A DNA stretch of 64,000 nt from a virus: IMG/VR virus record IMGVR_UViG_3300045988_147738, positions 38,432 through 102,431 of that record. One strand, given 5' to 3'. Both the position numbers and the translations under genes were made by a program. Positions 1 to 64,000 of this stretch are shown in pieces. The notes beneath the pieces are model-generated. The model searched no databases, had not been told where the DNA came from, and saw only the letters and a program-made list of their open reading frames with translations. Position 1 is the stretch's first letter; every line of letters starts with the position of its first letter.

Positions 1-3000
1 GAATACGATTAGAGCAAAAGAGAAATTATTTCTGATTATACTAAACGCGGATAGACACATTATGATAATGATGTAGAATAGATTACTTCTAAAGATCTAG
101 ACACTATTATTAATGCTAAATTACGTAATCCAAACTTAGAAATTGATTCTGATACATTAAAAGATTTAGGCTTAGATTAGAGTGTTATTGATTTAATTGA
201 TAATAATACTGAATTACAAGATGCTATTAAAGAATTGACTATATAGGCACAACGAATTGCTGACACAGAAACTAATGATATGTATAATAAAATGGTTTCT
301 GACGGGATTTTAGAAGATTTAAAAGAGGCAGGAGTTAGTGATGAATATGCCTCTGATATTGCTTATAAAATGGCTGAAGATGCAGCCCGTAATTCTAATG
401 CTATAGATTATACTGACTAGTCTGCTACCGCTTTTAATGTTTTAAATAATTCAAATGAAAATATTCAAGAGTTTTTAAAAGAAAGAGGATATACTTATAA
501 AGACAATAATTTTTGGGGTAATCTATCTAAATTATAGAATGATAAAACCATTGAAGTATATACAGATGAAGATTAGAAAGAGACTAAAAATATTTCTGTT
601 TCAGAATTACGAGCTTGGTTGGAAAATAAATTAGCAGCTGAAGATACTGTGGCTAATATTGATGATTATGTAGGAATAGAAGCCGACAGTAAAACAACTT
701 GGGAAAATGCTTCTAAAGCAAAAGAAACTTGGAATAAAAATCAATCAATTGTAAATGAATTTGAACAAATAAATCAACAGGGGACTCCAAACGAAGATTC
801 TTTTGATAATACAGAAGATTATCAAGCGGCCTATAATAATTATCAAGATTAGTTAAAAGAAAAAGCTCAAGCTATGTCAGATATGTTAAAATAGAATTCT
901 GAAGAATATGCTTCTATGTTTGACATGACTAAAGAAGGTTTCGAAGAATGGATTAGTGATAGTGACAATATTATTGAACATTATGATTTAATTAAGAAAG
1001 CAGTTGAAGGAGACGCTGAAGCTGTAAATGAATTACGAAAATTAACTGGTCTTAATATTGGTACTATTAAAGATATTTAGGATGCTTGGAATGATAACAG
1101 TAAAGAACTAGATAAATATATTGAAAAATTAGAAAAAAATCAAGATTTAACAGAAGCTGAATACGAATCTTTTGGAGATTTTTTAAATGCTAATTCTGAT
1201 AGTTTTGCTTCTTTAGCAGCAGTGAGTGAAGATACATTTGATAAAATGTTATCTCATAACAAAGATTTTATTAAAAAATCTGGTCCATTGATTCCTAAAA
1301 TGATGAAAGGCGATACTAAAGCTGTTCAACAATTTAGAGTAGAAGCATAGCGTCAAATTGTTTTAGATGTTAATAATACTTAGGCTAGAAAAGCAATGGC
1401 CCAATTAGAGGAATCTGCAGGTGCTGCTGCTGGGACCGTTGAATCAGATGTTCAAAATGCTTTTGATTATATTTCTAATTATATAGAAAACAATCCGATT
1501 GAAGTCGGAGCAGAGATTAATGATGCTGGATTTATTGATGCTTGTAATAAAATAATTGCAGCTAGTGGATGGACATCTGAACAAGCACAAAAAGAATTTG
1601 CTAAAATGGGATTTAATTTAGAATTAAATCCTGTTGAACCTCAAGTAACTAAAAAACATTTTGATACATTAGTAGCCACTAATGAAACTGATACCGTTGA
1701 TGGCACTCATCATGTTCCAGGCGGAGTTTTTATTAAATCTTTAGACGGAGAAGATGTAATCGAATATCCTGCAGCAGTTAAGGCTGTAACTGGTGGTGGC
1801 TTAGAAATGGGGGGTGAAGTCACTGGAGGCACAAAACCTTCTGGAGTCACTGGAGGAAATGGTGGCGGTGGTAGTAGTGGAGGGGGCGGTGGAAGCTCAT
1901 ATACTCCCCCTCCTAAAAAAGAATATAAAGATGAAATCGAGCGTTATCATGTAATTAAACAAAAAATTGAAGATTTAGAAGAAGTAATGGAGCATTTAGC
2001 AAAAGCTAAAGAGCGGGCATTTGGCACTTCTAAATTAGAATTAATGGATCAAGAAATTGAGAAATATGATGAAATGATTGATTTATAGAATCAATATCTT
2101 GATGAAATTAATAAATATTGGGATGAAGATAGAGCTTTAATTGCATCTTATGGGGCTGAATTTGATGAAACTGGTGCTATTACTAATTATGATGAAATTA
2201 TGAAGCGCCAGATTGATAAATACAATTCATCTATTGGTAAAAATGAAGATGCTGATAATGCAGCTGAAGAAGCTTATGACGATTTTATTGAAGCTTTAGA
2301 ATAGTATGAAGAAACTAATAATTTGCGTCAAGATGAATTGGAAAAATTATATGATCTACAAACTGAATTAGCTGATGTAATTTTTGAAAAGACTTAGTAT
2401 AAAATTGAAATTAAGATTGCTGTTAAAGATGATGAATTGGAATATCTTGATTATTTATTAAGTAAAATTGAAGATGATGCTTATTCTGCGGCTGAGGCTA
2501 TAGCTTTAATTGGTGATAAAACTTAGAATACTCTTGATAAAATTACTACTTATCAAAAAGGATTAATGAAATTATTAAATAATCATGGTATTGATTCAAT
2601 AGAAGAATTAGAGGGAATGTCTGAAGCTGATTTAAAAGCTAAAGGATTTACTACTAAAGAAATTGAGCAATTAAGAGACTGGCGTTCAGAATTATTATCT
2701 AGTAATCAAGAATTACTTGAAATGCGTAATACAATTCAAGAAAAAGTATTAGATAGTTTCAATCAATTCAGTGAAGATATCGAACATCAAATTGAATTAT
2801 TTGATCATTATCAAAATATTCTAGAAGGTGTTAAAGATATTACATCATTATTAGGAATGTAGTTGGGAGAATAGTCTAAAATAGTAATTCGCAATTTAAA
2901 TCGTTCATTAATGAATAATAGTATTAATAACTTAGCTGGGACTAAAAAAGAATTAGAAGCATTGAAATAGATGCGCGCAGACGCTTAGGCTGAGCGTGAT

Positions 3001-4749
3001 AAAGTGGCAGCTAACGGAGATGAACAAGCTATTAAGAAATGGGATAAAACCTTACAAGAAATTGATGATAAAATTAATGGTGCAGAAGAAAGCTTTTTAG
3101 ATAGTTGGCAAGAAGCATTATAGAGAGCAAAAGATATCTTTGATGAAGAAATGAATAATATTATTCAAGAATTTGAAAAAGGAATTGCTCCTATTCAAGG
3201 CACCATTGATGCATTACAAGAAGCCATTGACCAAGCTAATGAAATTGATGCACAATATTTAAGTGATACTGATAAAACTTATGAATTAAATAAATTAAGA
3301 CGTTAGATTGAAGGTTCTATAGAAGATACTGATATTATCGCCCATAAACAAGCATTGAATAAATTACAAGATGAGTTAAATAAAAAATTAAAAGATGGTT
3401 CTTAGATTAGTGAATATGATTTGAAAATTTTACAATCTAAATATGAATTAGAATTAGCACGTCAAAAATTAGAAGATACTCAAAATAATAGTGAAGTTGT
3501 ACGCTTGACTCGTGATAATAATGGTAATTGGGGATATGTATATAGTGCCGATGAAGATAAAATTGCTGAAGCCGAATAGGCCTATGAAGATAAATTAAAT
3601 GCTTACCAAAAAGCAAATGAAGAATATTTAAAAACTCTTGAAAACAATATTCTCCAAGTGTAGGCGGACTATAAAGAAAAACTTAAAGAAATAGAGTTAG
3701 GATTGGCTGACGGAGAAATAACAAAAGAAGAAGCTGAAGCTAGAATTGCTAATTTGAACGATTGGTATTTAAATAAGATGCAATATCTTGAAGGCGAATA
3801 TAAAAAGTTATTTGAAAATAGTCAAGACGCAACAGAAAAATTCACTTCATATTATTAGACTAATACTGATAATATTAAAAATACATTTGAGAAAACTACT
3901 TTAGCTATTAAAGGTGGATATGAATCATTAGACGCAATGTTCAAACGATTCTGGGAAAGTCATGACAATGTATTAGATAATTCAATGAAACTATTAGATG
4001 ATCTCAGTAAAAAATAGGATGAAATAAATCAAACTGCTGGTATTGAAGGTAGTTTTGCTAATGAGGCCTCTGGTTGGTCTATTAAGATTACTGGTGATTC
4101 TGATAAGGCATTAGCTGATATGGATGGAATAGTTAAGAACGCTACCGATTCCTTCAAAGACGTTATTGAAGCAGCAGGTAAATGGGAAAAAATTTATAGT
4201 GAAAAAATTAATAGTGCCATTGATCGGAATGAAGCTCTCGTGATTAGTCTTAATAAAATGGTTGCATTATTATCTGGAATAGATAGCATCGATTATAGTA
4301 AGTATGGAAAGAAAATAGATTCTCGCGCTACCGCGACGGATAATAATATAATTAGCACTCAACATAATTCTAAAAGCTTTAACAGTACTGATTATATTGC
4401 AGAACAATCTTTCCCCTTAACTTATGATATATTTGATAGATTAGATATGAGTAAATAGATAGATGAATGGATGTAGAGTAATGAATTAACAATTGATACT
4501 GCATTAATTGATAGTTTAGATGTATCAAGTATTTTACAAAGTATAGGATTAAATGTTTAGACTATTGTAAATTATTTATCTAATTTAACTCCTTCTTCTC
4601 TTGGTATTGATAGAATTGCACAAGAATTGATGCAGCAAGTCTCTATTAATGCTGATTTCCCAAATGTGACTGATAGTAATGAAATTATGGAAGCATTTGA
4701 AATGATGGAGAATGAAGCAAGTCAATACGCTAGTCGAAAGACTATTTAA
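1..4749 (+). CDS. Tail tape measure protein, 5'-truncated at the window edge. Frame 1 is open from nt 1 to the TAA at 4747-4749, reading through dozens of in-frame TAG codons. At least 1583 aa.
   Basis: Frame 1 was hand-checked over 1-4749 and contains only TAG triplets, no TAA or TGA. Composition is long, helical and rich in E/K/Q/L, with a Gly-rich linker (GGGLEMGGEVTGGTKPSGVTGGNGGGGSSGGGGG) around 1790-1915. A hairpin terminator follows directly. The four frame-1 ORF-track fragments (619, 1396, 2566, 4120) are all pieces of this one frame. Confidence 0.8.
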
Positions 4750-4756
4750 TTTAAAT

Positions 4757-4789
4757 GGCGAGGTTTAATTACCTCGCCATTTTTTTATT
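4757..4789 (+). terminator. Rho-independent terminator after the tape measure gene
   Basis: Stem GGCGAGGT, loop TTAATT, stem ACCTCGCC, followed by ATTTTTTTATT. Confidence 0.7.
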
Positions 4790-4861: not shown

Positions 4862-7669
4862 ATGTCTAATGAATTAAATGAAAAAATATTCCGATCAGTA
4901 GACACAATTGTATCTGCTCGATTATAGAATTTACCATTTGACTAGACAATAATCGGTGTGGTAGAAAGTGTACCTGAAAAATCAGGAGCGCAAAAATACA
5001 TAGTAAATTATAAAGGTGCAAAATTAACAGTATTTGTAAATGATACCGATAAAAAATATGCAATAAATGAAGAAGTATATGTATTAATTCCTGGTGGAGA
5101 TTTTTCAGCTAAAAAACTTATTACAGGTAGAGTTATAAGTGATTATTAGGCTGATGAAAAAAGAAATGAAAATAATTATCTGCCATCATTTAGCCATTGG
5201 GTTTCGTCTGAGCAAGAATATAGTTTAATTGTTGAAAATAGTAATTCAGAATCAACAAAATTAATTTATGAAGTTGCATTAAATGATTCTCCTATTATTG
5301 GTTATACAACCTTATAGTTAGCTTATAATATTGCCGCGGATTTATACAATAATGAAAAAATTGTTGATTAGGGAATATATGGAGTAAGAGTTATTTTAAC
5401 AGCAATTGATTAGAATACTGTTAATACTAATGATAATAATTTAAAACAAGACTTAATATATAATATGACTTGTGATAATATGTTATTAATGAATAAATAT
5501 CGTTCAGGTGGATATACGGCACAAAATTTCAATATTACGATTACTGATAAAATTATTACTAATATAAAAATTATTGCATACCACAATGGAAAATTTTATG
5601 ACAGTGATAATAATAAAATTACTCAAAAAGATGATTTATATGTTAAATTAAAAAATTTCACATTAACTACTGGGTATTTAAAAAAGGATTTAGACAATGA
5701 CAGTAATAGTGATATTGCAATTTATTTTTATTCTCTTAATGGTATATAGTATAAAAGTAATACTAATGAATTAAATGTTACAACAGCATTTCGTCCAGTA
5801 AATAAAGTTACTGGTACTATTATTACCTATCCTATTACTAATATTTAGTTATATAGATATAATGACAGCAATACTATCAATACGTCAGGAGTTGGAATAG
5901 GCTGGGATTTGATTAATAATGTAATTTAGAAAGACACTACATTAAGTTTTAAATTGCAATCTGGCGATTAGATTACAAAAGCGATTTATTGTGTTAAAAT
6001 TAGTTTTAATGTTAATAATATACCAAATGTTTATGCCGTTTCAAATAAATTAACATTTACTAATTAGACTTCTAATGAAAATATTTCATTATTAGCGGGA
6101 ATTACATTAACTCCTAATAATAATAGTAATGTTTTCTACTCTTATGGACAAGACAATTAGTTATTAGCTCGATCTGATAGCGAAAAACTATAGAGAATTG
6201 CTGTATCATTTTCGTCAAAAGATACAGCTGGAAATACTACATTAGTCCCAGGAGTCAATTTAACTTATTATTTACCAGTAAAGAATACTATGATTTTACC
6301 TGTTGATTCTAGACGAGAAATTAATAAAAAAAATCAATAGGAGTATTATACATTTAATAAAAAATTAACAAGCGATGATTTACAATCAAATATTTTTTAC
6401 ATCCCATTTAAAATTGCTAATTTATATAATCCATTATTTAAAAATAATACAATTATTTGTGATGTAGAAATTAATGATTAGACTTATACTCAAAACTTAG
6501 ATTTATTGTTCGGTGTTAGTGGTTCTTCAGGTGCTAATTATGTTTTATAGTTAGAATTATAGGATAGTGCTTCTAATTAGAAGGTAAAATCTATTTTTTA
6601 TAAAGCAACTAATTAGCCCGTGTATAAAATTTAGTATTATTTATATGATTATGCTTGGAATTCAATTCCTAATAATAATTTAAAAAATATTTCATTTACA
6701 TGGTATAATTCAGCATTAAACAATAATTCTAAAATAAAATTAGATAATAAAACGGGAGTTATTACTTTATTACAAGATTTAGTCGCAGAAGATGGAATTG
6801 CTTCTAAATTAATAGTTTAGATGACTGGCACTTATCAAGGAATTGAATTAAAAGGATATATCACAATACCAGTAAGTTTTAATCCTTTATGTGCTTGTAT
6901 TGATGGCTGTTCTATTATTACATATGATATAACAGGTAAAAAACCAATTTATGAAAAAACTCCTTATAGATTATATCAATATTCTGATTCGTTAGATTTA
7001 TAGGTTATAGATGATATAGAGTGGAATTTAATAGATGAAAGTGGATTATTAAAATTTAATTCTATTGATCCTAATGGGCCTAACTCTAAAATTAAAATTA
7101 TTACTCCACCAACAATTTATTCCCCACAAAATAAATCTTCATATATAACGGCTAGTCTAAATAGTTCAATTGTTTGGATATAGCCAATTTTAATGATAAA
7201 TAATACTTATCCAACAGCTATGTGGAATGATATGCGTGGAAATGAAATTAATTTTAATAACAATGAACTTCAATTATTTTCTGCAACTGTTGGACAATTA
7301 GATGCTAAACAAGCAAATGGAGTATTAATGGGGACTTTCATTAATAATAATAATAAAAAACAAGAATATGGGTTATATGCTTTTAGTGATAAAAATATTG
7401 TATTTAAAATTACAGATAATGGTGAGGCTTATATTTAGTAGTCTGAAAAAGCATATTGTTTATCAAATAAAGATGAAAATAGTACTCCATATTCAGTAGG
7501 TAGCAAAACTTAGCCTGTATATTTTGATTAGGGAGTTCCTAAATAGATAGATATTAATTTAACAAATATTAATAATAAAATTTTAACATTAGAAAATACT
7601 ATAAGTAATTTGCAATAGACTATTTAGAGTTTAACAAATAGAATTATAGCATTGGAGAAAAAAAAATGA
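4862..7669 (+). CDS. Large tail structural protein, 935 aa. By position it is a distal-tail or baseplate candidate. Read through many TAGs, ends in TGA.
   Basis: GGAG RBS sits 8 nt before the ATG at 4862. Frame 2 was hand-checked as open, apart from TAGs, through ORF-track fragments 4958, 5465, 6821 and 7193 to the TGA at 7667-7669. The C-terminal end is a coiled coil (LTLENTISNLQQTIQSLTNRIIALEKKK). It lies immediately downstream of the tape measure gene. Confidence 0.6.
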
Positions 7670-7689: not shown

Positions 7690-10600
7690 ATGCCTACAAG
7701 ATTATATCCTCCTCAAATAGCAGGAACATTACCGGCATTTTATAAATCTTATGATAGTGCTACTGGAGTGTTAAAGGAAAGTTCAATCACTATCCCATTT
7801 ACTTCAAGCGCGCTAGTTAGTTCGGCGGATTTTATAGGTTTTTACTTACGTTTGAAAACCTCTTCTACAAATACATATTTATTTCCGCCAATATATTCAA
7901 AAAATTATGATAGTAAAAATTCTACGGTTACATTCACATTAACCGCAGATTAGAGCGCGTTACTAAATGAAGGACAATATTACAAGATCCAAATAGCTTA
8001 TGTGTCTCAATATGTTGAGAGTGAAACTACTGATATTGACGATGATGGAAATATAATTACCAATAGTGTAATGAAAAAATTAACTGGCTATTATTCTACT
8101 ATTGGAATTATAAAATGTGTTCAAGAGCCTAAAGTTTCTATTTAGGGTTATTCAATAGATAGTATTAATTTATTTAATAATGAATTATTTGGTGTTTATG
8201 AGTTATCTTCAAATTTAGATTAGACTGAAAAAGTTTATTCTTATAATTTTTCATTCTATTTAGAAGATGGGGATTTATATTACTCCACTGGAGAGCTATT
8301 GCATAACAATGCTAACGATAATGAATATGGTTTATCTATTGATTCAGTAGTTTTAAGTAGTTTTATAAAAACTAGTGAAATATATAAATTAATTTATACA
8401 GTTACTACAATTAATGGATTGGTAGTGTCTAGTCCGACTTATAGAGTAACTGCGGAAACATTATTAGCTCCTAGTAAAAATTTAAATATTTTACCAAGAG
8501 CGGATTCAGAAACTGGTAGTATTAAAATTAATTTTAAAGGTTTAGAAAAAACTGTTAAAATTGAAAATACAATTAAGGAATTAAAACGCAAGGAAGTATA
8601 TTATAATTATAGTAAATCATTAATTTCTTAGATTAAATAGAAAATCAATCCTGACTATGAATATTAGGGAGAATAGATAACTAATTTAGAATATTTATTA
8701 AAGATAAGTTCAAATGATGGAATGACTCGATTTTTTGTCGCATTACAAAAATTATTAAGAGATAATGCAGGATTAATAAGTGAACTCTGTGGAGTTTCTC
8801 CTGGTTTGTTAATGTCATTAGTTGATATATCAGCAGACTATACTAAAGTGTTAAGTCAATATATTATATCAATTACAAAACCTACAATGGTTGAAAAAGA
8901 TTTTTAGAAGATTAATGATCAATTTTTAAAGAATACTACAAATTATATTCTTACTACAACAGGAGACTATAAAAATTTAAATACAATATTATAGGTTCGC
9001 TTAAACTCTTATGTAGGATATTTATTTAGTAGTATTGCTACTGATGAAACAGATTTTGATAGAATAGTAACAGATTAGAATTTAATTAATTTGGCTCAAA
9101 GTGTTATTACATTAGCTGGATTATCTGAAGAATTGGCTATAGAATATATGAGTATTTTAGGGTATGCGGCTAGTATTGTTGCCACTGAAGAAAAATCTGA
9201 AGATACTTATTTTGGACAATATATTCTTGTGCGCGCGAGTGAAGAAGATGATTATCGCTCTTGGTTAGAATTAAAACGTTTTAAATTAGAAAATATACGA
9301 CCTTCTGCAATTAATTATGTTGATTATACAGTAAAACAAGGCGTTAAATATATATATGGGATTATTCAATATAATTTATTTGGTATTTATTCTGCGAGAA
9401 TTGAGAGTGAGCCAATTTCTGTTGATTTTGAAGATATTTTTCTATATGATGGAGAACGTGTGTTAAAAATAAAGTTTAACCCTAAGGTATCTTCATTTAA
9501 ATCTACCATTTTAGAATAGAAGACAAATACGATTGGAAATAAATATCCATTTATTTTTAGAAATGGAAATGTGAATTATAAAGAATTTCCAATTAGCGGA
9601 TTAATTTCCTATTAGATGGATAATGAATTATTATTTTATAATCGTGAAATTGAAGAATATATTCGTAATTATACTTTTGATTTTAAATCGTTGGAACTAA
9701 AAGAACGTATTGAAAAACAAAAAGAATTTCTTAATAAAATGGATTAGATTTTAATAAATCCTTGTGATTTAGTAGAAGAGAATATCCATAAGGAAAGAGA
9801 TTTTAAAATTGAAGTATTAAATTGGTTAAATAACGGTAAACCTAAATTATTTAAATCAGGGCCTGAAGGCAATTTTATCGTTCGTATTATGAATGTATCA
9901 TTATCTCCTACTGACAGTTTAGGCCGTATGTTACATTCATTTACTGGTCAGTGTGCGGAAATAGCTGAGTTTAATTATAATAATTTATTACGTTATGGAT
10001 TTATTAAAGCAGATATTGTTAGTAAATATGTTTCTTTATGGAAAACTTATTATTTAAATGAATATAAGCCTGGTAAAGATATCGAATTATTATTTGACTC
10101 AGGTATTAATTATTTTGCTGTAGAAGATTTAAAACCTGGTAGTAGTATATTTTTAACTTATGGAGATACAATCGATCGGACTGAAGATGAAATCATAATA
10201 GGTATTACTGGAGCCTATCGGTATGAAAATTCTTCACGAATTATTTCAAAAATTAGAATACCTAATAGTATATATAATCATCCAATAGGAATATTAGAGT
10301 GCCAATATCAAGGTTTAAGATATTCTGATTTTGATGCAATTACTTCAGTTAATTTAAAAACTATAGTAAGTAATCAATATGTTGGTGTTGATCCAATATT
10401 AGAAAATATTAAAGCATTTACTACCGATCCCTCTGATTATGCTAAACAATTATTTATAAAAGCTTTAAAAGCTTTAAATGATCGAATTTTATTAAATGAT
10501 AATTTATCCTATTCAGACTTGCGAGAAAAACTGGTTGAACGAGGATTTGAACCAGGAGATATTGTTTAGCATATTAATTCATCATTTTATAACTATGAGA

Positions 10601-20900: not shown

Positions 20901-21134
20901 AGTAAATACAATAATAAATATACATATTTTAAAATTACTAAACCAATTGATGTTAATTTAAGTGACTATTCTATTGGAACAAGATGGTCTGGAATAAAAG
21001 TAAATCGGTAGAATACTGGAAAAATAGTTAATTATAATCCTAATTCTGGCACAACTGATACTCAAACTATTACTTTAGAAGAATTAACTCCAAAGAGATT
21101 GGCAGAATTAATTAATATTGTAGAATCTGAATAA
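17922..21134 (+). CDS. Large structural protein, 1070 aa
   Basis: AGGAGGG RBS, then ATG at 17922 in an ATGA overlap. Frame 0 was hand-verified through fragments 18159, 18888, 19809 and 20571 to the TAA at 21132-21134. It contains many in-frame TAGs. Confidence 0.6.
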
Positions 21135-43693: not shown

Positions 43694-43714
43694 TAAAGGA
43701 GAGTGAATTAATAT

Positions 43715-49902: not shown

Positions 49903-50459
49903 TAAGTTAGACTAGCTTGATTGGCTTCTGGGCTACTTGTAGTAGAACCAAACCCACCAAGCCGTTGACCAAAAGCATTATCATCATCTGTTGTTAGATA
50001 AGACTTAATAATACCTTGGCCAATTTTATCTCCCTTTTTAAGTTGAATATCAAATGGAGTAAGATTAATTACTTGAAAATAAATATGTCCTTCATTATCG
50101 GGATTATTATAATAATCAGCATCAATAATACCCACTCCATTAGCAAGAATAATCCAATGCTTTAGTGGAGTAGAACTACGTACTGATAATTCAAGATATG
50201 TATCCGCATCAAGACAACATTTAATTCCAGTAGGAATAAGAGTAGGTTTTATTTTTAATTCTTTAGTAAAACTAGCCATTTCAGTTAGAGTATAAGTATG
50301 GCCTGTTCTACCCCATCGAACCATTTCACTCATTTGGTTAGAATAAGATGGGATTACAATATCATCGGCCACAGTAAAATCATATCCGGCGGAATTCACT
50401 GTGCTACGAGTAGGAATTACAGCATCAGGGTATTTAGAAACTCTTTCAAACTTAATCAT
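49902..50459 (-). CDS. dut: dUTP diphosphatase, 185 aa
   Basis: Trimeric dUTPase motifs: AGYD, RSS, GVIDADY, GDKIGQ, GGFGSTT. Confidence 0.85.
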   Translation of the reverse strand: MIKFERVSKYPDAVIPTRSTVNSAGYDFTVADDIVIPSYSNQMSEMVRWGRTGHTYTLTEMASFTKELKIKPTLIPTGIKCCLDADTYLELSVRSSTPLKHWIILANGVGIIDADYYNNPDNEGHIYFQVINLTPFDIQLKKGDKIGQGIIKSYLTTDDDNAFGQRLGGFGSTTSSPEANQASLT

Positions 50460-51557: not shown

Positions 51558-52052
51558 TCACATTTTTTCCCATAAGTCAAATGGAGCATAATAAACTTTT
51601 TGATTGCGTGAGCCACGCATAGGTAAGGTAATATCTCGTTGCTCAATCTTGAATGGGCCGTCAATAATACAGTCAATATTATCAACAATATTTTTTAGAT
51701 GTGGCTCTCTACGCATAGCCAATTCATCCATTGTATACCCAGTCCATAAGAAAATTTTTGTTTTGGGAAGAGCTTCTTTAATATGTTCAATAATTAAATC
51801 TACAAGAAATAGATTTTCTGGGGCGAGAGGCTCTCCACCCATAATACAAAAATCACGATGTATACCATTAGCAGTAAGAGCATTCACTATATCATCTAAT
51901 GTATCTGTAGTAAATTCTTTTCCGCCATTAAAATCCCAAGTTTCTGGATTCTAACAACCTTCGCAATGTCTTGCACATCCTTGAATGAAAAATGAGACAC
52001 ACACTCCAGGAGCTCCAGCAATATCATTTTTAATTATTCCTGCGTATCTCAT
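51558..52052 (-). CDS. nrdG: Anaerobic ribonucleotide reductase activating protein, 164 aa. Extends ORF-track fragment 51558-51887 through one in-frame TAG.
   Basis: The extended N-terminus reads MRYAGIIKNDIAGAPGVCVSFFIQGCARHCEGC-TAG-NPETWDF. It carries the radical-SAM Cys cluster missing from the ORF-track fragment. Its ATG overlaps the nrdD TGA (ATGA). Confidence 0.75.
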
Positions 52053-54370: not shown

Positions 54371-54967
54371 TTAATAAGTTGTGTCCAGATGCTCCGGCCA
54401 CTGAGACAGAAATAATGCTAAATCTTTATATATACATTCTAATTCCGCGGGAGTATTATTTATATATAACCAATTACATAAATCATCAGCGTCTTCAAAA
54501 TCAAGTTTATCTGTTTTATATCGACGAATAATTTCATCAATATCCGGGTTAGCCTCTCGATTTAGCTATCTAATTAATCGAATTTTATCATCTGCGTGAA
54601 TATAAACGATAATTAAATTTACTCGTTTATCATGTAATAAAATCTCTGCGCCTTCTGGATTAAATACTCCTACATTGATAGCGCCTTCTTTGACTGATTC
54701 AATTCCTGTGCCATAGCACCATTCATTAAAAACAGTAGCTTCAAACATTTGATTCTATAAAATCATTTCAGCAAATTTTTCTGCTGAGATAAAATGGTAG
54801 TTAATACCATCCACTTCTTTTTCTCTTGGAGGTCTTGAAGTATAACTTATAATTTCATGTAGAGGTAATTTACCATTATAATAATGTTTTGTATCATCAA
54901 TTAGTTTACGGAGAATGGTATCTTTACCACTCCCCGCTTCACCAATTAATGCTAATATATTATACAT
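54371..54967 (-). CDS. P-loop (d)NMP / guanylate-kinase-like protein, 198 aa. Joins ORF-track fragments 54755-54967 and 54566-54748 plus a further segment through two TAGs.
   Basis: P-loop GEAGSGKDT in the first fragment, Gmk-like ...FNEWCYGT... in the second. The TAGs at 54755-54757 and 54566-54568 fall inside the conserved fold. TAA at 54371-54373. Confidence 0.65.
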
Positions 54968-57900
54968 TAATTAGCTCCTCCATTGTATCTTTCATCTTTT
55001 AATTCAATATCACCATTATCTAAAATTTTATCAATTTTATACAACTGGTGACCGCCAGAACTAGCATACTTTTTTGCTATAAAATTATCGCCTTGACGAA
55101 TGCCTTGAACAGCAATCATATTACCACGATTAAACCAACTTTTTTCCATTACTTTTTTAGTGCCATCAATTTGTTTTTCTGAAATCTGTTTATCAAATAA
55201 TGAGAAATATTCTTTTCTAAATTTAACTTCGACAACTCCAGAAGTAGTAAGTAATGTAACTGTAGATTTAGTTTTATTTTTAGCAATACAAGTTCCGCAA
55301 ATCTTATGTAATTTATACATAGTAATTGTTTTATTGCCTTTAGAAAATGTTTTATCAATAATGGGCTCTTCTGGCAGATGGAAGAAATCAACAAATCCAT
55401 ATTTACTATTATTTACATGGGCTAATTCATGCTCATGATAATAGAAACATAAGACTTCCATTTCCCACGCTGAAATAGATTTAGATGCATATTTATCCCA
55501 ATCTTCTTTAAATATTTTATTATTTAATTTATTTAAAATAATATCTTTATTTTCTGCAATCCAAGTTCGGAATATATCCATATATTTTTGATATACTTTA
55601 TCCCAAGCTTTAGAATCTAATAAATAACAACTACCAATTAAATCATCGCAACCAATTTCAATTAAAAAATTAATCGCTCGTTCATCAACTTTATAGATAT
55701 TACCATCTTTACAAACAGCTTTTAAATATCTATTAAATTCATAAACTCGTCTTGCCATTACATATTCATCTTTATCTTCTGGTAATAAATTATAACGAAT
55801 TAGAGTTGCTAAATTTTGTAATGTTAAACGAGATTTTTTATCACACGTTTCCCAAATATACCAAATCATTAAATCTTTACGGTCCATCATTTCATCAAAT
55901 GCACCGCTTTTAATCAATGAAATCATTGCTTGCTTACTTGGTTTAATACGATAATAAAAATCTTTCACTGATATATACGGACGATTTGCAATAATATTAT
56001 TAATCAAATCATCGCCAACGTTCAACAATCCTTTTAAGCCAAATAAAATTTGGTTATTTTCAACATCAGGCGCAAATCCAAATCTAGCTTTATTAATATC
56101 AGCCAAACTTACTTTAATACCAGCTGACTGTATATCTCCAATAGCTTTTGCGATTTTACCATAATCAGTGCTAGCTACTTTTTTATTTTTTGATTTATTC
56201 TCCATTATATCTTCTGGAGACGCACCACAATATTCTTCACCGGAATAATCATAATCTTCATCAGTTATTTCTTCTGGTTTATTTTCTAACGCTCCACTGT
56301 TTACAATTAAACAAGCGCAATTCCAATAAATAGGATTGAAATTAATTGCCAAATAAATCATTTGAATTGCAACAAATGAATAAGGAAGAGAGTGATTTAA
56401 GCTAAACGCATATCCTAACTGAGGAGCGATCGCATTTTCCCAAAAATATTCAGCATTATGTTCATTAGTAAATTTACTAAATACTTGCTCTTTTAATTGA
56501 GGAATTTTTGCCATTTGCTTTTTAGCAACAACTTTACGCGCGCTATTTGCTTCGCCTAATGTAAATCCAGCGACATCCATAAGGATTTCCATCATTTGCT
56601 CTTGAAGTGGACAACATCCATAATATCTATCACAATGCTTGTGCATTTTTTCAATCATTTCTTCTGGCAAATGATTATCTTTCATTTCTTTATCAAAAAC
56701 TTGAATACCAGCTTTTTGGATTCGATAATATCTATCTTGCTGACTTTCTTTGCCCTTTTCACTCATTAGACGCATCATAGCGTTTGCAGCGGTCATTTCC
56801 ATAGGATCTTTTGGTTTCAATTTTTTAGCAATAGCTAAACCTACACCAGTAGAGAATTGGAATACGTCAAGAATATCTCCTGCCGCCAAGTGTTCCCAAA
56901 TGCGTTTATCAGAAGTATCTATTACTTCTGGATGAAGATATTTATTATAAAAATCACGTAGACCAATATCAGGGATTTGATTATCTTCTTTTAATAAATT
57001 ATAGCATTGAATAATTTTATCGCAAGCTTCTGTTACCAGGAAGTCATATTTAGTATCTCCGGCGGCTTCGGCTTTATGTAAGTCCCAACAAGTAATTAAA
57101 TCACCACTAGGAGTTTTCATAAATGATGCAGTTTCAAATGGGTCTTCACCATATAAAATAACACCAGAAGCATGAGAAGAACGTTTATTAATAATTCCTT
57201 CAATATATACAATAATATCCAATAAACCAGGATATTGATTTACCTTTTGGATAAATGTAGTAACTGGCTTTCTATCTTTATCAGGATTACCATTTACCAC
57301 ATCTTTCATCGGCCATAAAATTCCACGTTCCTGCGGGATTAATGAAGACATAAATTGAGCTTCATCTACATCAATACCATTGGGATAATCATCACTTCTA
57401 TAGCCACGACAAGCAGTTAAGATTGCTTGCTTTGTTCCTTCAGTTCCAAATGTTGCAACTTGAATTAAACCTAATGTTCCACGTTCTTTACGAATAGCAC
57501 TAAAAATTGCAGGGCGTTTACTTGGCGCAAGATCGATATCAATATCAGGCAATTCCGCGCGCTCTAAATTTAAGAAACGCCAATATGGTAATCCCCAACG
57601 AATTGGATCTAGCTGAGTAATTCCTAATAAATAATTAGATAAGAAACCAGTTGCTGAACCTCGACCAGGACCAACAATACTCCCGCACTCCCAAAATAAA
57701 TCAATATAATGTTTAAATGTATTAAAATAAGCAAACAAACAGTCTTCAAGTTTTTCGCCAATATTTTTAATTACATTAGCTTCAGTTTCAAGACGAGATA
57801 TATATATTTCATTCTCATATAATTGTTTTTCTTGCAAGGCTTTAATACATTCATTTACCCAATATCGTTCTTGAATATCATCACTATTAATTAATGAACA

Positions 57901-58938
57901 AATAACAGGATATTTCTCAAGCCAATCTGCTGGAATAAATCCTTTTTTATAATCAATTACTTCTACTCTTGGAATTTGTTGTTTACGTTCCAGAGAATAA
58001 AATTTTATTTTCTTTTGAATTTCTAATGTATTGTCAAAAATCCAATTCATAATCTCTTGAGGAGTTTTATCTTTATCCCAAGTATCCATATATGGTAGCA
58101 TTAATTCTTCTACTTCATCACTATTCATTACATAAGCAAACTCATAGAATGAATCAACTTCACGCTCGCCATCTTTAGAATTTAAATAAGCTTTATGAAT
58201 TGGTCTATCTTTCTTTGTTAAATAATGAGCATCGGTTCCAATTACCATTTTTAAATCATATGCTTTTGCTACTTGATAAATCTTTTGATTTACTACAAGT
58301 TGGTCTTTCATGGTAGATGGAGCGCACTCCAAATAAAAATCATCTTTACCAAAAACATTTATACAAAATTCAATGAATTTAACAACATTATTATAATAAA
58401 TGCTTTTAGTTTGCATATCGCCTACTACTTCAGCCTCATACATTGGATATAAATTAGAACCTAATTCACCACCAATGCAAGCTGTTGTTGCGATAACATG
58501 TCCTTTGTATTGTGCCATTACATTTTTTAATTCAGACTTTAATGTTGGCACACGTTCCATTTTTCTATCAGTATAAGAATTAATCCAAGCAATTGAACTT
58601 AATTCTTTTAATGCTTTATAACCAATTTCATCTTTTGCCAATAGAATAAAATGATAATACTTTTGACCACAATCTCTTGTATCAGTTAAATAAATTTCAT
58701 TACCTAGCGCAATAGTAAAATCAGGATGCTCTTTTAAAAAATCTTTTGCAAATTGATTAACTTCCATATGAGCAGATAAACAGTCATGGTCAGTAATTGC
58801 TATACCACTTAATCCTAATTTTTCTGCTGTTTTAATCAACTCTTCTGGTCTATTAATAGAATCTAATAAACGCAGATTTGAATAGTGAGTATGGTTGTGT
58901 ACGCCAAAATATGGTCGCATAATCCACCTCTTTCTCAT
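54967..58938 (-). CDS. DNA polymerase III alpha subunit (DnaE-type, N-terminal PHP domain), 1323 aa
   Basis: N-terminus ...HNHTHYSNLRLLDS...GLSGIAITDHD. Length and architecture match Pol III alpha. No TAG codons. AAGAGGTGG RBS. Confidence 0.8.
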   Translation of the reverse strand: MRKRWIMRPYFGVHNHTHYSNLRLLDSINRPEELIKTAEKLGLSGIAITDHDCLSAHMEVNQFAKDFLKEHPDFTIALGNEIYLTDTRDCGQKYYHFILLAKDEIGYKALKELSSIAWINSYTDRKMERVPTLKSELKNVMAQYKGHVIATTACIGGELGSNLYPMYEAEVVGDMQTKSIYYNNVVKFIEFCINVFGKDDFYLECAPSTMKDQLVVNQKIYQVAKAYDLKMVIGTDAHYLTKKDRPIHKAYLNSKDGEREVDSFYEFAYVMNSDEVEELMLPYMDTWDKDKTPQEIMNWIFDNTLEIQKKIKFYSLERKQQIPRVEVIDYKKGFIPADWLEKYPVICSLINSDDIQERYWVNECIKALQEKQLYENEIYISRLETEANVIKNIGEKLEDCLFAYFNTFKHYIDLFWECGSIVGPGRGSATGFLSNYLLGITQLDPIRWGLPYWRFLNLERAELPDIDIDLAPSKRPAIFSAIRKERGTLGLIQVATFGTEGTKQAILTACRGYRSDDYPNGIDVDEAQFMSSLIPQERGILWPMKDVVNGNPDKDRKPVTTFIQKVNQYPGLLDIIVYIEGIINKRSSHASGVILYGEDPFETASFMKTPSGDLITCWDLHKAEAAGDTKYDFLVTEACDKIIQCYNLLKEDNQIPDIGLRDFYNKYLHPEVIDTSDKRIWEHLAAGDILDVFQFSTGVGLAIAKKLKPKDPMEMTAANAMMRLMSEKGKESQQDRYYRIQKAGIQVFDKEMKDNHLPEEMIEKMHKHCDRYYGCCPLQEQMMEILMDVAGFTLGEANSARKVVAKKQMAKIPQLKEQVFSKFTNEHNAEYFWENAIAPQLGYAFSLNHSLPYSFVAIQMIYLAINFNPIYWNCACLIVNSGALENKPEEITDEDYDYSGEEYCGASPEDIMENKSKNKKVASTDYGKIAKAIGDIQSAGIKVSLADINKARFGFAPDVENNQILFGLKGLLNVGDDLINNIIANRPYISVKDFYYRIKPSKQAMISLIKSGAFDEMMDRKDLMIWYIWETCDKKSRLTLQNLATLIRYNLLPEDKDEYVMARRVYEFNRYLKAVCKDGNIYKVDERAINFLIEIGCDDLIGSCYLLDSKAWDKVYQKYMDIFRTWIAENKDIILNKLNNKIFKEDWDKYASKSISAWEMEVLCFYYHEHELAHVNNSKYGFVDFFHLPEEPIIDKTFSKGNKTITMYKLHKICGTCIAKNKTKSTVTLLTTSGVVEVKFRKEYFSLFDKQISEKQIDGTKKVMEKSWFNRGNMIAVQGIRQGDNFIAKKYASSGGHQLYKIDKILDNGDIELKDERYNGGAN

Positions 58939-58991: not shown

Positions 58992-60188
58992 TTATTTTCT
59001 AATAAGAACTAAACGCTCTTTAGCTCTTGTGGCTAAAGTATATAGATATTTTTTATGAGTTTCTCTATCATATGGAGGAGCTTCTTCAAATCCTAATACT
59101 TTATTATATTCACTACCTTGGGCCTTCCAACAAGTAATAGCATAGGCATATGAAAAATCAAATGGAGGGTCAGGACAATTTTTATTCTTTTTAATTTGAT
59201 AAATTTGTTTTCCTTCAAATGTTCTTTTGCCAGTTAATAATTGATTATAATCAATAGGGACTCCACAAAATGTATCATTATCATCAAGTCTTAATTGAGC
59301 ATACATAAATGGTACAGGATTTTTATAAATCCAATATGGGAATCGTATGTCTTCGACATAAAAATCTTCTAATGTTCCAATAGTCCCATTAGTTAATGCC
59401 CATGTATGATTAGAAGATATAAAATCCCATTGATTATGTAATCCAATTAATTTATCTCCAATACAAGGCCGGGCTGGGTCATATCCTTTTTGAGTTCGGA
59501 TTATACGATTAATATCATTTCGTTTTTCATTTGTTGAGCAAATAATTTGGTCTGCCCAATTATACATCTAAGGAAGCATTTCATCCCATTTAAATCGAAT
59601 TAAAACTTGCTCTTCAGTGCCTTTATATGAAGAAATTGGTTTGTTATCACGAATCCACATTGAAAATCTAATAATTTCACTATCTTGAGCTTGACGCATA
59701 ATTTCATCAAGGAAAACATGCGGATTGTCGAGCACATGATTATTATCTTCATCGACTATTGGCGGTAATTGACCGGGGTCTCCAGTAGCTAAAATATAGA
59801 TGCCATGAGATAAAAGCAATTCCCACATAGCTTTAGGGAGCATTGAAACTTCGTCTACTACAATTACTTTATAGTGTACTATTTCTTCTCTCGGTCTTGG
59901 AAAAAATTTATATGTTCCATTAGGGGTAATCCGTGCTTTATATAATAACTAATGAGCAGTAGTTGCATTTGGGCAACCTTTAGTCTAGAGAACTGTAGCT
60001 GCTTTACCCGTAAATGCCACATAACAAACTTCTTCTTCTGGATTTACTCCCAAGGCAGAGATAATAAATTTAATTAGAGTTGATTTACCACTTCCAGCAT
60101 AACCTGCTATTACTGTATATCGTTCTTTATTTTTATATCGTTCTACTGCTATCTTTAATCCTTGTTCTTGTTTATTTGTTAAAATCAT
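58992..60188 (-). CDS. SF1 Dda/RecD-like DNA helicase, 398 aa. Joins three ORF-track fragments through 3 TAGs.
   Basis: Walker A IAGYAGSGKST, TGKAATVL, T-A-H-(TAG)-L-L, VIVVDEVSM, and GDPGQLPPI in the middle fragment. TAGs at 59985-87, 59949-51 and 59568-70 were hand-verified as in frame. Confidence 0.7.
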
Positions 60189-60476: not shown

Positions 60477-60484
60477 ATATATAA

Positions 60485-61315
60485 TTAAGATGCAAAATAT
60501 TCAAAAGCGATTAAAGCATTTGATTGTCTCACATCATAAGAACCTGATCCACAGCGCTCATAACATTTAGCAAATGCTAATGCAATTTCTTCAATATCAG
60601 TCATTTCAATAAAATCATCATAATCAAATCCTGATTTATATTCACCACCAAATGAATTAAATTCATTTTCAATAGTTTCAACTAAATATTGACATTGTTC
60701 AGATAAATTCATACCTTTAGTATTACTATATTTTAAACTCCATTGACATATGCCATAATATCCTGGATGAGTATTGGTAGTATGTTCAATATCTAAAGTA
60801 TGCCCACCAACCTCAGCCATTATATTGCCAAGGATACCCGCGCATATTTCATCGCTATACCCTTGATCGCTTAAATATAGCCAAATACTAGAAGCAGTTG
60901 GATATTTCTCAATTCGAATTTCCCAACATTTTTGTTCTAACCGATTTTCATAAATTGTAATCAATTCATTTAATTGTTCAATTTCAGCGGTTGTTGTTTT
61001 AACTACTGGATGTTTATCAGTGTATCCTAAATTATCAGCCAATACTAGCATTTGTTCAGCGGATTCTTTTAATGTTTTACACTCTTGGATTAGTGTTCTT
61101 AATTCTTGTGTATCTTCTGTTTTAGATATATTTCTAATTTGTTTATACTCAATAGTAGTAGTAAGATCTACCACAGAAGACATTTCAGAAGGGATGTAAG
61201 CTTCCGAAAGTGCATTTCGAGTAATAGCTGACGCTTCAACGATTTTAACGCTGCATCCAATAATTAATACACAGCTTAATGCAATCAGCCATTTATTCAA
61301 AATAGTATTTTTCAT
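60485..61315 (-). CDS. Secreted lipoprotein, 276 aa, with a lytic-transglycosylase/lysozyme-like C-terminal domain
   Basis: Signal peptide plus lipobox (LIIGCSV). C-terminus ...MAEVGGHTLDIEH...GYYGICQWS resembles SLT-type E...GxxQ motifs. AGGAGG RBS. Confidence 0.5.
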   Translation of the reverse strand: MKNTILNKWLIALSCVLIIGCSVKIVEASAITRNALSEAYIPSEMSSVVDLTTTIEYKQIRNISKTEDTQELRTLIQECKTLKESAEQMLVLADNLGYTDKHPVVKTTTAEIEQLNELITIYENRLEQKCWEIRIEKYPTASSIWLYLSDQGYSDEICAGILGNIMAEVGGHTLDIEHTTNTHPGYYGICQWSLKYSNTKGMNLSEQCQYLVETIENEFNSFGGEYKSGFDYDDFIEMTDIEEIALAFAKCYERCGSGSYDVRQSNALIAFEYFAS

Positions 61316-61368: not shown

Positions 61369-63114
61369 TTAAAAATAATAATTTGCCCTATCTACAATTT
61401 CGTAATCTTTAATCATAACTTGAGGACTAATTTTATTATTCCAAATATTTCGTTCGCATTCACCAACGATATTAATTGTCACATAACCTAATTCAGAATA
61501 TAGTTTATCATATTCCTCTTCAGACGACCTAAACTTCATAAAATTGATGCCGTTAGGCAACATTATCTTTAGAGTAGGATTTTTATCTGGCGATAGAATA
61601 CGTATATTGTCCTTGTGGACTTTAATACCTTCTACAGCAATTTCAGCTTCTTCTACTCCTTGACCCCATAAGCTTTTCATTCCTGCGATGTCAATAACTT
61701 CATCAGGAGTTAGCTCATCTGATTTGTAGATAAAATCTACATTATAGATTGGGGTGAAATCAAAACCATCTAGAGCAGAATTTGTAGATGCAATAAATGC
61801 GCTAATATCTTCATCTTTAATGCCAATACCAAATGCATTAGCATGACCTTCAGCATACATAACGTATTTATTATTTTCTAAAAATCCTCTAAAATCTTTC
61901 AATCGAGATTTGTCGTATCCTCTACCAGACCCTTCCCAAGTTATTGTACCATCTTCATTTTCAATTTTATTTAAGATTAAAACAGGTCTTTGATATTCAC
62001 TCATTAATTGATTTGCTATTAATCCAGTTAGGTTGCGGTCAGTAATCAAATCATCTAATTGAACGATTAAGATTTTATTACTCAATAAATTTTGATTTAC
62101 TATTATCTATTCAATTCTTTCTAAGCTATTGTCTCGAATTTTGGTTTGTCTACTTTTAATATTGGTACAATTTCGACAAGCTTGTTCTACTCTCGTCTCT
62201 GCTTGACCTTTACATCCACGTTTCGTTGATGGGACAAGTTCGTATCCCCGAAAATCAAGCATTGATTCAAATAGCATGAGCTTTTCTTCTTGCGTTCCGA
62301 CGCGAGTTGTCGCGTTAATTAATGGAGCAATATAAAAAGCTACTCCAATAGGTGTAATCTCATTTGTAAAATGAAATTGGTCTTTATCAATCGCACCTCT
62401 GAAGTAAGGATTGCGGATTTGTTGAAGTCCTTTATCTATTAATCTTCTTGTTTCAAAATCTCGCACATCCATCATGTCGGCCACCAATCCAAGAGCCACT
62501 AAATCTAAAAACTTCTATGCATGGTCAGTTTTTAATAATATATCAATATAGCAACAAAATTTCCAGACCATTGCTACACCAGATAATGATTTAGTGGGAT
62601 AATCACATAACTAATTATTAATTATACAAGCATACTCAGAAATGTGATCGGCTTCATGGTGGTCTATTACCAACACGTCAACTCCACTCAAATTTAAATA
62701 TTCATGTACTTCATAATCATTTGAACTTGAATCTGGAGCAATTACTAATTTAACATCTTCCGGAATTGTATCTGGAATGATGCCGTGCTGTTTTCCCATA
62801 TGGACACGATAAGAAATGTTATTATTCACAAAACTGGGAAATAGACAATATAAGTAATTCATTAATAATGCAGCGGAAGTATATCCATCACAATCACTAT
62901 CTACCTATATCAGAACTTTGTCATTTTGTGAAATATGTTTAATAAGCATTTTAGCGCCTTCATCCAAGTGCGGTATTAACCGAGGGTCTAAAATGTCATT
63001 ATCAGTAGTGTTTAAATAATGATTAATCTAATCGTAGGGTATTCCACGATTTACTAGCACTTGTTCTACCGGTGTATATATCGGGAACTCGGGTGCTCTT
63101 AGGCGGTATTCCAT
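61369..63114 (-). CDS. DHH/DHHA1 RecJ-like phosphoesterase or nuclease, 581 aa. Joins ORF-track fragments 62611-62862, 62107-62499 and 61369-62085 plus an unlisted N-terminus through 5 TAGs.
   Basis: Motif I VDSDCDGYTS, DHH motif VLVIDHHE, DHHA1 YAEGHANAFGIG. GGAGGG RBS, ATG at about 63114. All joins were hand-checked as in frame. Confidence 0.7.
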
Positions 63115-63186
63115 AGAATAGTCACCCTCCTTTCATTAAATCACTACCTATATATTTTAATTTTTTTATTAAATTTATTATTTATA

Positions 63187-63498
63187 TCAGTCCTTTTCTG
63201 GATAATAATATTCAAACCCATGATAAGGAAAATCAGTGGTACAAGGTTTAATAATAGTATCAACAATATCATCAGCAATTTCACGATCAATATAAGAAAT
63301 ATTACATTTATATCCTCGACTATTAGTATTACCTCGTATAGCTCTCCAATTATCTCCATTTTCATAAGTAATTGTATATTCATTTTTAGTTTTAACTATT
63401 TGAATAGGGCTAATATGGAGATATTCATATTTTAGTGCTATCTAATCTAATTTATTTACTGCTGAAATCCAACGATTACCCCAAACGATACCTTTCAT
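63187..63498 (-). CDS. Hypothetical protein, 103 aa, one TAG
   Basis: GGAGAA RBS. Coherent hand translation. The ORF-track entries in this region (63144-63383 and 63220-63435) are low-complexity artefacts in other frames. Confidence 0.45.
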
Positions 63499-63652
63499 AG
63501 TGTGATTCTCCTTTTATTACTTTTCCACAGTTGGGACATTTATCATATTCTTCTTTAAAACTTTTATAACATAATGGACATTGATATCTTATATCTGGGA
63601 ATGGATCTAAATCTGCGGCTGCATTATATTTATTCCAATGTAATTCATTCAT
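63476..63652 (-). CDS. Small zinc-ribbon protein, 58 aa
   Basis: CPLC...CPNC. Its ATG overlaps the primase TAA. Its 3' end overlaps the next gene's start. Confidence 0.4.
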   Translation of the reverse strand: MNELHWNKYNAAADLDPFPDIRYQCPLCYKSFKEEYDKCPNCGKVIKGESHYERYRLG

Positions 63653-64000
63653 TATATTATAATCCTTTCTTTAAATAATTTCAAGAAAATATCTTTACCA
63701 TCATCGATTGGTGAATCCTTATAGCCAAGCAATCCTATTTTATCAAACATAAATGATATTGTAGCATAATTTTTAAATTTACTTCTTGCTTTTAATAAAT
63801 TTAATTTAAGATGTTTAAATTCATCATCACCAAGTTCTTTAAACTGTCTATCGAATGCAATAATAATTTCTTCAACTCCACAGTCTAATAATAATTGAAC
63901 TTGATGGCTAGATAAATTACTCCCGCAACAGGCCACAGATATATCATTATTAAGACCAAAATAAGTTTTATATTTTAAAACAGATTTTTCTCCCTCAAAT
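63652..64000 (-). CDS. DnaG-type primase, C-terminal Toprim region (partial, continues beyond the window)
   Basis: ...VEEIIIAFDRQFKELGDDEF... is a Toprim-like acidic motif. The frame stays open to the window edge. Confidence 0.5.
   Translation of the reverse strand, partial: FEGEKSVLKYKTYFGLNNDISVACCGSNLSSHQVQLLLDCGVEEIIIAFDRQFKELGDDEFKHLKLNLLKARSKFKNYATISFMFDKIGLLGYKDSPIDDGKDIFLKLFKERIII

Follow-up and report, generated by a model that had tools for sequence, protein, structure and literature searches.

Gene Content and Stop Codon Usage

The window described here, a stretch of 64,000 nucleotides (nt) from the IMG/VR virus record IMGVR_UViG_3300045988_147738 (positions 38,432-102,431; GC content 29.7%), carries a tail/virion gene block on the plus strand (window positions 1-45442) and, beyond it, replication and nucleotide-metabolism genes on the minus strand of an uncultivated tailed phage of ~197 kb. 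Reading these genes hinges on a single codon, TAG, which an initial annotation made from the letters of the window proposed to be reassigned from stop to sense, most likely Gln, with TAA and TGA remaining as stops. The analysis reported here makes it very probable that the phage decodes UAG as Gln (NCBI translation table 15) and uses UAA and UGA as sole terminators, most likely via its own tRNA(CUA).

Read in the standard code, the longest stop-to-stop frames of the window span 1323 and 749 amino acids (aa); with TAG as sense, the longest frames are 2733, 2369, 1582, 1323, and 1070 aa. Taking TGA as sense brings almost no gain in frame length, nothing comparable to TAG, and taking TAA as sense lengthens no long frame in the window. 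A greedy tiling of open reading frames (ORFs), with stops limited to TAA and TGA, yields 42 genes that together account for 97% of the window. Most starts have an AGGAG-like ribosome-binding site (RBS) upstream, and ATGA overlaps between adjoining genes are frequent. In 20,703 codons, these genes contain 224 in-frame TAGs; they end at TAA (31 genes) or TGA (11 genes), never at TAG, which bears out the stop codon assignment of the initial annotation. Nor do TAGs gather near gene ends: their placement along genes is uniform (Kolmogorov-Smirnov p = 0.78), and 3 genes have a TAG among their last 5 codons vs ~2.3 expected by chance. Could such long frames be accidental? In the two non-coding frames, 4.9% and 15.1% of codons are TAA or TGA; at the lower of these rates, a frame of 2368 codons lacking both would arise with a chance of ~4e-52, and for the open frames of 1582-2724 codons the chance is 1e-35 to 1e-60. 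TAG, CAA, and CAG together account for 3.7% of window codons, an ordinary glutamine content.

If TAG is a sense codon, why do public records hold such genes in pieces? The JGI/IMG annotation of a sister contig, IMGVR_UViG_3300045988_160359 (197,570 bp; 98.5% identical to the window and colinear with it from ~contig position 46,243), cuts the equivalent of the giant gene g03 into pieces of 58-226 aa (P0067-P0070), and the GenBank record of the gut phage Phass-1 (OQ749652; L219, L220) lists short standard-code ORFs; both present the fragments as separate hypothetical proteins. These entries would suit a phage in which TAG still terminates, the pieces being separate small genes or pseudogenes, or the full-length products arising by rare readthrough. 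The TAG-bounded fragments of the window, however, have a median length of 42 aa, and an RBS-plus-start motif follows 4 of the 224 TAGs, proportionally below the 14/494 seen after CAA, used as a control; the initial annotation, which noticed no such restart after any TAG, was thus nearly right, the four instances being no more than CAA shows. Chance does not account for frames that run for 1582-2724 codons before meeting a TAA or TGA, TAGs are kept in relatives or replaced there by Gln codons, both Pfam domains and full-length homologs cross TAGs, and essential genes with 30-45 TAGs are beyond the reach of low-level readthrough. Continued termination at TAG has, in our judgment, virtually no chance of being the correct reading.

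The domain evidence comes from six genes (g17, g19, g32, g34, g36, and g39) in which Pfam matches run across TAGs; those in the kinase, the helicase, the DHH protein, and NrdG correspond to the domains that the initial annotation had described as split at TAGs. Because of the 97% tiling, the 224 in-frame TAGs, the frames that exceed chance, and the domains that cross TAGs, TAG is shown, at the level of predicted genes, to be a sense codon here, and no terminators other than TAA and TGA are apparent.

Genes of the Virion and Replication Modules

The plus-strand block opens with the tail tape measure gene g01 (1-4749; 1582 aa, 31 TAGs, stop TAA), whose 5' end lies outside the window and whose match to the tape measure family phrog_34405 (residues 644-1243) extends across many TAGs. 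It is followed by g02 (4862-7669; 935 aa, 30 TAGs, stop TGA), a tail-module protein that matches nothing in Pfam or PHROG and in which TAG reaches its window maximum, 61% of Gln-type codons (TAG, CAA, and CAG; binomial P = 3e-6, enrichment). Next comes g03 (7690-14796; 2368 aa, 45 TAGs, stop TGA), a giant virion-module protein also enriched in TAG (48% of Gln-type codons); its stop overlaps the start of g04 as ATGA. This tail/baseplate gene (14793-17564; 923 aa, 14 TAGs) matches phrog_32343 and the tail protein family phrog_1887. The structural protein g06 (17922-21134; 1070 aa, 15 TAGs) matches no PHROG family, and g07 (21251-22162; 303 aa, 5 TAGs) matches phrog_24103. A single TAG is found in each of g08 (22190-23848; 552 aa, 6% of Gln-type codons) and g11 (32491-34461; 656 aa), which flank a second giant, g09 (23991-32165; 2724 aa, 16 TAGs, stop TAA), for which a Pfam search returned no family. 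The distal part of the block comprises g17, a radical SAM/4Fe-4S protein (39465-40823; 4 TAGs) with a Radical_SAM match at residues 37-219 that crosses TAG codon 197; the tail-fiber-like g18 (40889-43693; 934 aa, 10 TAGs); and g19, a glycine-rich protein (43715-45442; 575 aa, 8 TAGs) with Listeria-Bacteroides repeats (Flg_new) and an ALK_LTK_GRD match at residues 32-291 that runs across two TAGs.

The two giants are exactly the 2368-aa and 2724-aa proteins predicted by the initial annotation, at 7690-14796 and 23991-32165; its count of eleven fragments for each gives way to 46 and 17 TAG-bounded pieces, respectively. For g03, a large protein collection holds 66 homologs of 1400-3100 aa; a g03 homolog finds no sequence match in the Protein Data Bank. 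One public protein (P0001) is likewise 2368 aa long, is 97% identical to g03, and has Q at 45/45 TAG sites. Standard-code callers had been expected to miss these genes entirely. JGI/IMG indeed breaks up the 2368-aa gene, yet a full-length, Gln-translated protein is already public.

On the minus strand, TAG-bearing and TAG-free genes lie side by side. The dUTPase g28 (49902-50459; Pfam dUTPase match) and the phage tail lysozyme-like g38 (60485-61315; Phage_lysozyme2) are TAG-free. So are two further genes: g33 (52049-54298), encoding the 749-aa anaerobic ribonucleotide reductase NrdD (Pfam NRDD, 1.8e-147), has 0 TAGs among 33 Gln-type codons (P = 1.2e-5, depletion), and g35 (54967-58938), encoding a 1323-aa DnaE-type DNA polymerase III alpha that is ~39% identical to YorL of phage SPbeta, has 0 among 45 (P = 1.9e-7, depletion). 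Others carry TAGs within conserved domains. The NrdG activase g32 (51558-52052) has one, codon 34 (51951-51953), which immediately follows the Cys cluster and falls inside a Fer4_12 match at residues 15-153. The guanylate-kinase-like g34 (54371-54967) has two, at codons 71 and 134, both within Guanylate_kin (4-160). The RecD/PIF1-like superfamily 1 helicase g36 (58992-60188; AAA_30 and UvrD_C_2) has three, of which codons 68 and 80 are spanned by AAA_30 (14-188). The RecJ-like DHH phosphoesterase g39 (61369-63114; DHH and RecJ_OB) has five, with DHH (66-209) spanning codons 70, 168, and 200.

The DnaE gene shows an additional peculiarity in relatives. In seven of them (L020, L021, L024, L029, L041, L048, and L049) the match spans 4.8-5.1 kb instead of 3.97 kb, with ~1 kb extra inside the gene, and in Enterococcus phages EF1 and EF5 an HNH homing endonuclease splits this same gene. 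The extra ~1 kb probably represents introns or inteins.

The Amino Acid Encoded by TAG

Which amino acid is inserted at TAG? The codons that stand opposite window TAGs were tabulated in 218 related IMG/VR loci, translated with TAG masked, and family searches used proteins with X at TAG positions. For structural genes, single-protein searches recovered the two closest genomes, so that the majority of TAG-rich positions are compared with two relatives only. Over the 191 covered TAG positions, the non-TAG partners are led by CAA (39) and CAG (16), with GAA (13) and AAA (10) next. Codons for Tyr, Trp, Leu, and Ser that differ from TAG by one mutation seldom stand opposite it; CAA is two steps away, and its pairing with TAG is therefore not a neighbor artefact. 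When TAG columns are scored with substitution profiles derived, amino acid by amino acid, from these alignments, Gln has the highest log-likelihood (-427), ahead of Glu (-497) and Lys (-508), in line with the first guess from the sequence. Gln is also favored over Lys (-89.6 vs -96.0; 15 positions) when only relatives whose fetched region looks standard-coded are considered.

Individual columns are equally telling. At codon 134 of the kinase g34 (54566-54568), 46 homologs have CAA (26), CAG (10), or TAG (10) and no other codon; at codon 168 of the RecJ-like g39 (62611-62613), 69 homologs have CAA (33), CAG (13), or TAG (23) and, again, nothing else. Codon 375 of g17 (40587-40589) is CAA in 17 of 19 homologs. 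The initial annotation had doubted the identity on account of NrdG, where it aligned the position to Tyr or His. The codon 34 column in fact holds CAT (12), CAC (2), CAA (10), CAG (7), TAG (7), and TTT (4), i.e., His 14, Gln 17, and Phe 4 beside TAG; Gln fits and is, by this alignment, a natural occupant of the position.

Might TAG nevertheless be sense for another amino acid, such as His, Glu, Lys, Tyr, Trp, or pyrrolysine (Pyl)? Some columns would allow it: codon 80 of g36 is mostly Lys/Arg and codon 200 of g39 mostly Asp/Asn in relatives, and NrdG codon 34 is often His. Yet Gln leads Glu by 70 log-likelihood units and all others by more, columns made up of Gln codons and TAG only do exist, and the one-step neighbors are rare partners. 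With the tRNA evidence considered below, this possibility appears extremely unlikely, and, to the extent that sequence alone can decide, TAG is shown to stand for Gln.

One further candidate reassignment, TGA as sense, was hinted at by ORF coverage in three relatives (L035, L154, and L158); it was dropped, as homologs of the window genes contain no in-frame TGA.

A Suppressor tRNA in Sister Genomes

Reading UAG requires a decoder, and the initial annotation pointed to a CUA-anticodon tRNA outside the window. Such a tRNA is indeed found in near-identical sister contigs. A walk along contig 160359 in 10-kb steps passes replication genes (AAA ATPase, topoisomerase subunits, ligase, endolysin, and PhoH), then a TAG-poor block of small genes, and arrives at an array of at least 15 tRNAs; tRNA(CUA) was reached only at the fourth step, at ~157.2 kb of the contig (L221:1466-1539), ~43 kb past the window end. 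Scans of loci retrieved through single genes revealed no such tRNA, either in 49 DnaE loci, 58 ATPase loci, and 60 scanned GyrB loci or, with a local ARAGORN run that included a positive control, over all 196 loci (3.4 Mb). The tRNA scores 55 bits against the Rfam tRNA model and is also called by ARAGORN; the sequence that marks it is TCCGGCTTGGAGTAATGGTAGCCCGCCTGACTCTAAATCAGGTCGCCTCGGTTCGAATCCGAGAGCCGGTGCCA. An exact 35-nt core recurs in three sister contigs (160359, 140174, and 163304; 98-99% identity), and the presence of a suppressor tRNA(CUA) in these three genomes is thus shown. From this we infer that the genome of the window carries the same tRNA. No public contig was found that is identical to the window; besides the sister contigs, NCBI record ULOZ01046417.1 (197,566 bp) is 99.1% identical to it over 9.1 kb.

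The tRNA(CUA) folds into a canonical cloverleaf with G18G19, a T-loop TTCGAAT, two linker bases between the acceptor and D stems, a 4-nt variable loop, a U1.U72 mismatch, and discriminator G73. A G73 and a weak 1:72 pair are acceptor-end identity marks of tRNA-Gln, and a tRNA-Gln(CUG) becomes a suppressor by a single G36-to-A change, as in E. coli supE. All six CUA tRNAs from relatives and Phass-1 have G73, and none of the six has a G-C pair at 1:72. ARAGORN labels the molecule “tRNA-Pyl(cta)”, which might be taken to favor pyrrolysine, but this is the label it gives to any CUA anticodon. In tRNA-Pyl, G18G19 is missing, the T-loop is atypical, a single base links the acceptor and D stems, and the variable loop has 3 nt; the phage tRNA, with its G18G19, standard T-loop, and two linker bases, is unlike it, and TAG, at ~1% of codons, is far more frequent than known Pyl usage.

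A second, unusual gene lies ~0.9 kb from the suppressor tRNA in sister contigs (L238:8269-8465 on the minus strand, equivalent to L221:357-553 on the plus strand; also L240:3049-3245). It is a split tRNA gene whose halves match the tRNA-Gln(UUG) of Phass-1 almost base for base and are separated, within the anticodon loop, by an insert of ~118 nt whose ends form an inverted repeat (CGAGAAA/TTTCTCG). This insert, kept in two sister contigs with 2 differences, is shorter than a typical group I intron. Rfam recognizes the full 194 nt as a tRNA (43 bits), while ARAGORN reads an intron-containing tRNA for Arg or Glu; in stability, the fold does not exceed shuffled sequences (z = -1.08). If the insert were a new small tRNA intron or processing switch that governs the supply of a Gln-decoding tRNA, it would add a new regulatory layer to stop-codon recoding. 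That the suppressor tRNA(CUA) and the split tRNA-Gln gene of the sister genomes form a compact, timed “Gln code-switch” unit is nonetheless doubtful, and we consider it improbable.

Uneven Use of TAG and a Model for Timing

Reassignment was initially described as genome-wide, which is too strong: TAG use is graded, with 12 of the 42 window genes, DnaE and NrdD among them, free of TAG. In the tail/virion block there are 13.7 TAGs per 1000 codons, TAG makes up 37% of Gln-type codons, and 19/19 genes contain it; for the remaining window the figures are 3.6, 10%, and 11/23. The replication and lysis region of the sister contig has 2.3-5.1 TAGs per 1000 codons (8-14% of Gln-type codons), the endolysin and a holin-like gene being among the genes that carry them, and the block beside the tRNA array has just 1.1 (4%). 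DnaE stands out: across 50 homologs of 34-99% identity (the L001-L049 set), TAG is found 10 times vs 2002 CAA/CAG (0.5%), while the TAG share is 6.3% in homologs of NrdD and 19.7% in those of RecJ. Overall, TAG outnumbers CAG more than four-fold (224 vs 51), and 36% of Gln-type codons end in G, as compared to 12% for Lys and 15% for Glu; TAG is used well above what base composition predicts.

Does this pattern reflect timing of expression, or only history and mutation? DnaE and NrdD could be recent imports from standard-code genomes, and an AT bias could turn CAG into TAG, with the further step from TAG to TAA being lethal. Such an origin is made plausible by NrdD, TAG-free here and with up to 9 TAGs in relatives (its lack of TAG is not a clade feature), by the alternation of TAG-bearing and TAG-free genes in one apparent operon, and by the excess of TAG over CAG at 29.7% GC. 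The near absence of TAG from DnaE over 50 homologs that differ so widely in identity, on the other hand, argues for continuing selection and against a recent import, and TAG density varies with the functional module, as it does in other code-15 phages. TAG avoidance in DnaE looks selected, judging from these alignments. An origin through history and mutation instead of timing is unlikely, though far from negligible; the gradient, with TAG highest in tail genes, less frequent in replication genes, and almost absent next to the array and from DnaE across the clade, supports recoding as a means of timing late expression.

The bases that follow TAG are also biased. After the 224 in-frame TAGs, the +4 base is A in 49% and C in 8% of cases; for other NNG codons the corresponding shares are 35% and 17% (P = 5e-5), and in 24/42 genes the true stop precedes a T. 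In relatives, counting non-identical contexts, the bias is weaker and has the same sign (A 39% vs 34%), although these data are not independent and some of the TAGs are spurious. Suppression by supE rises ten-fold when the following base is changed from C to A, and release factor 1 (RF1) prefers C at +4 (PMC6266110). The bias would thus fit a suppressor tRNA that competes with host RF1; if selection maintains it, the sequence itself would directly reveal an adjustment of each TAG, in recoded phages, to host RF1.

These observations can be combined into a model. The phage would supply its own canonical tRNA(CUA), encoded in the tRNA array. Genes on one side of the array, being nearly TAG-free, could be translated by host ribosomes in the standard code. 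As tRNA(CUA) accumulates, it would compete with host RF1 and, charged with Gln, insert this amino acid at UAG, which would switch the code in the course of infection and allow synthesis of full-length TAG-rich tail/virion proteins and of the moderately recoded replication and lysis proteins.

Several points weigh against this scheme. The early/late split is unclean: the kinase gene, which sits between those of DnaE and NrdD, carries TAGs, as do NrdG, the helicase, and RecJ, and close relatives have TAGs in NrdD. ARAGORN and Rfam detect no tRNA within the window, and the suppressor tRNA is seen only in the sister contigs (98.5-99% identity), not in the window's own 64 kb. Overall similarity does not assign the isotype of this tRNA: it is 66% identical to Phass-1 tRNA-Gln(CUG) and about as similar to Gly, Arg, and Thr tRNAs. 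No release-factor GGQ motif is present in any frame of ~118 kb (the window plus 114-164 kb of the sister contig), and the release factor 2 (RF2) gene that the initial annotation envisaged elsewhere did not turn up there. A search for a host in GTDB, finally, produced only two short contigs of metagenome-assembled genomes (MAGs) and identified no host. 

In its release factors the phage appears to differ from Jade, Lak, and Agate, whose code-change module combines a suppressor tRNA, RF2, and an aminoacyl-tRNA synthetase: in the same ~118 kb neither RF2 nor a tRNA synthetase gene was found, synthetases not having been searched systematically. The two GTDB contigs (L236 and L237) carry DnaE relatives of 58% and 47% identity in MAGs labelled “Tenericutes” and “Clostridium”; they are most likely misbinned phage contigs. 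The replication genes look Bacillota-type, and the phage probably infects Bacillota.

Is the phage tRNA needed at all, or does the host decode UAG, through a Gln code or an amber suppressor, so that tRNA(CUA) is dispensable? The lack of a tRNA in the window would suit this idea, as would the survey of gut phages in which a suppressor tRNA is detectable in only 40% of TAG-recoded genomes (Borges et al., bioRxiv 10.1101/2021.08.26.457843). Yet three sister genomes keep an identical CUA tRNA, and avoidance of TAG beside the array and in DnaE, which would be pointless in a host that reads TAG already, speaks against it; the +4 bias suggests competition with RF1, and the Borges survey predicts standard-code Firmicutes/Bacteroidetes hosts for all phage clades except code-25. 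Decoding by the host is very unlikely, and a phage-borne tRNA(CUA) remains the favored route.

Relation to Known Recoded Phages

The initial annotation regarded the code itself as established for some uncultivated phages, and the literature agrees. Gut phages that read TAG as Gln were surveyed by Borges et al., who report recoded structural and lysis genes, replication genes recoded to varying degrees, low GC, and suppressor tRNAs in 40%; in crAss-like phages code 15 was confirmed, and Gln at TAG shown, by metaproteomics (PMC9523058), and Phass-1, of the proposed genus Phassvirus, is a TAG-recoded 136-kb gut phage with 36 tRNAs, including tRNA-Sup-CTA (PMC10607447). The present phage resembles the code-15 gut phages (crAss-like, Lak, and the Borges clades) in reading TAG as Gln, in having the structural and lysis genes most recoded and the replication genes variably so, in low GC and a size of ~200 kb, and, judging by its sister genomes, in a tRNA(CUA). 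Code 15, its amino acid, and the tRNA mechanism are already established for other phages, and the finding opens no new question. It adds a ~197-kb lineage to the code-15 phages and illustrates a practical point: standard-code annotation shreds virion genes, so that table 15 is needed for gene catalogues and for host-range and structural studies of the clade.

The closest curated phage is Phass-1, which NCBI files under “Caudoviricetes code 15 clade” and which provides the best match for a piece of g03 (45% identity over 86 aa). The two share TAG as Gln and, judging by the sister genomes, a tRNA array with a CUA suppressor (tRNA-Sup-CTA in Phass-1), and the body of the Phass-1 tRNA-Gln(UUG) recurs, nearly unchanged, in the split gene of the sister contig; they differ in size (136 kb vs ~197 kb), in the suppressor tRNA, only 62% identical, and in showing no match at the nucleotide level. 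A megablast search of window positions 40000-64000 against a curated phage collection returned nothing, the relatives there being distant and detectable at the protein level only. They include SPbeta-like Bacillus phages (YorL) and Enterococcus phages EF1, H1, and VRE9, which share the DnaE (~39% identity over 99% of the length) and a weak match to the giant virion protein, a similarity confined to proteins. These cultured phages, taken here as standard-code relatives, are not known to be recoded.

The comparison with E. coli supE is instructive as to mechanism. Both systems, the phage by way of its sister genomes, feature a Gln-type CUA tRNA with a weak 1:72 pair and G73, incorporation of Gln at UAG, (presumed) competition with RF1, and a preference for a following A, enriched here. 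In contrast, suppression by supE is partial and its genome keeps TAG stops; the window has none, and hundreds of its sense TAGs are obligatory.

Other Features of the Virion Module

Two observations concern the distal part of the virion block. In g15-g17 (38348-40823), the C-terminus of g15 consists of long Cys/Gly-rich repeats of the CxxxC type, just upstream of the radical SAM gene g17; the arrangement recalls a peptide-plus-maturase pair, though it lies within the tail-fiber module. Farther along, at window positions ~42167-45442, the alignment to a 98.6%-identical sister contig breaks in the C-terminal part of g18 and in g19, a divergence that points to a putative receptor-binding region swapped between strains.

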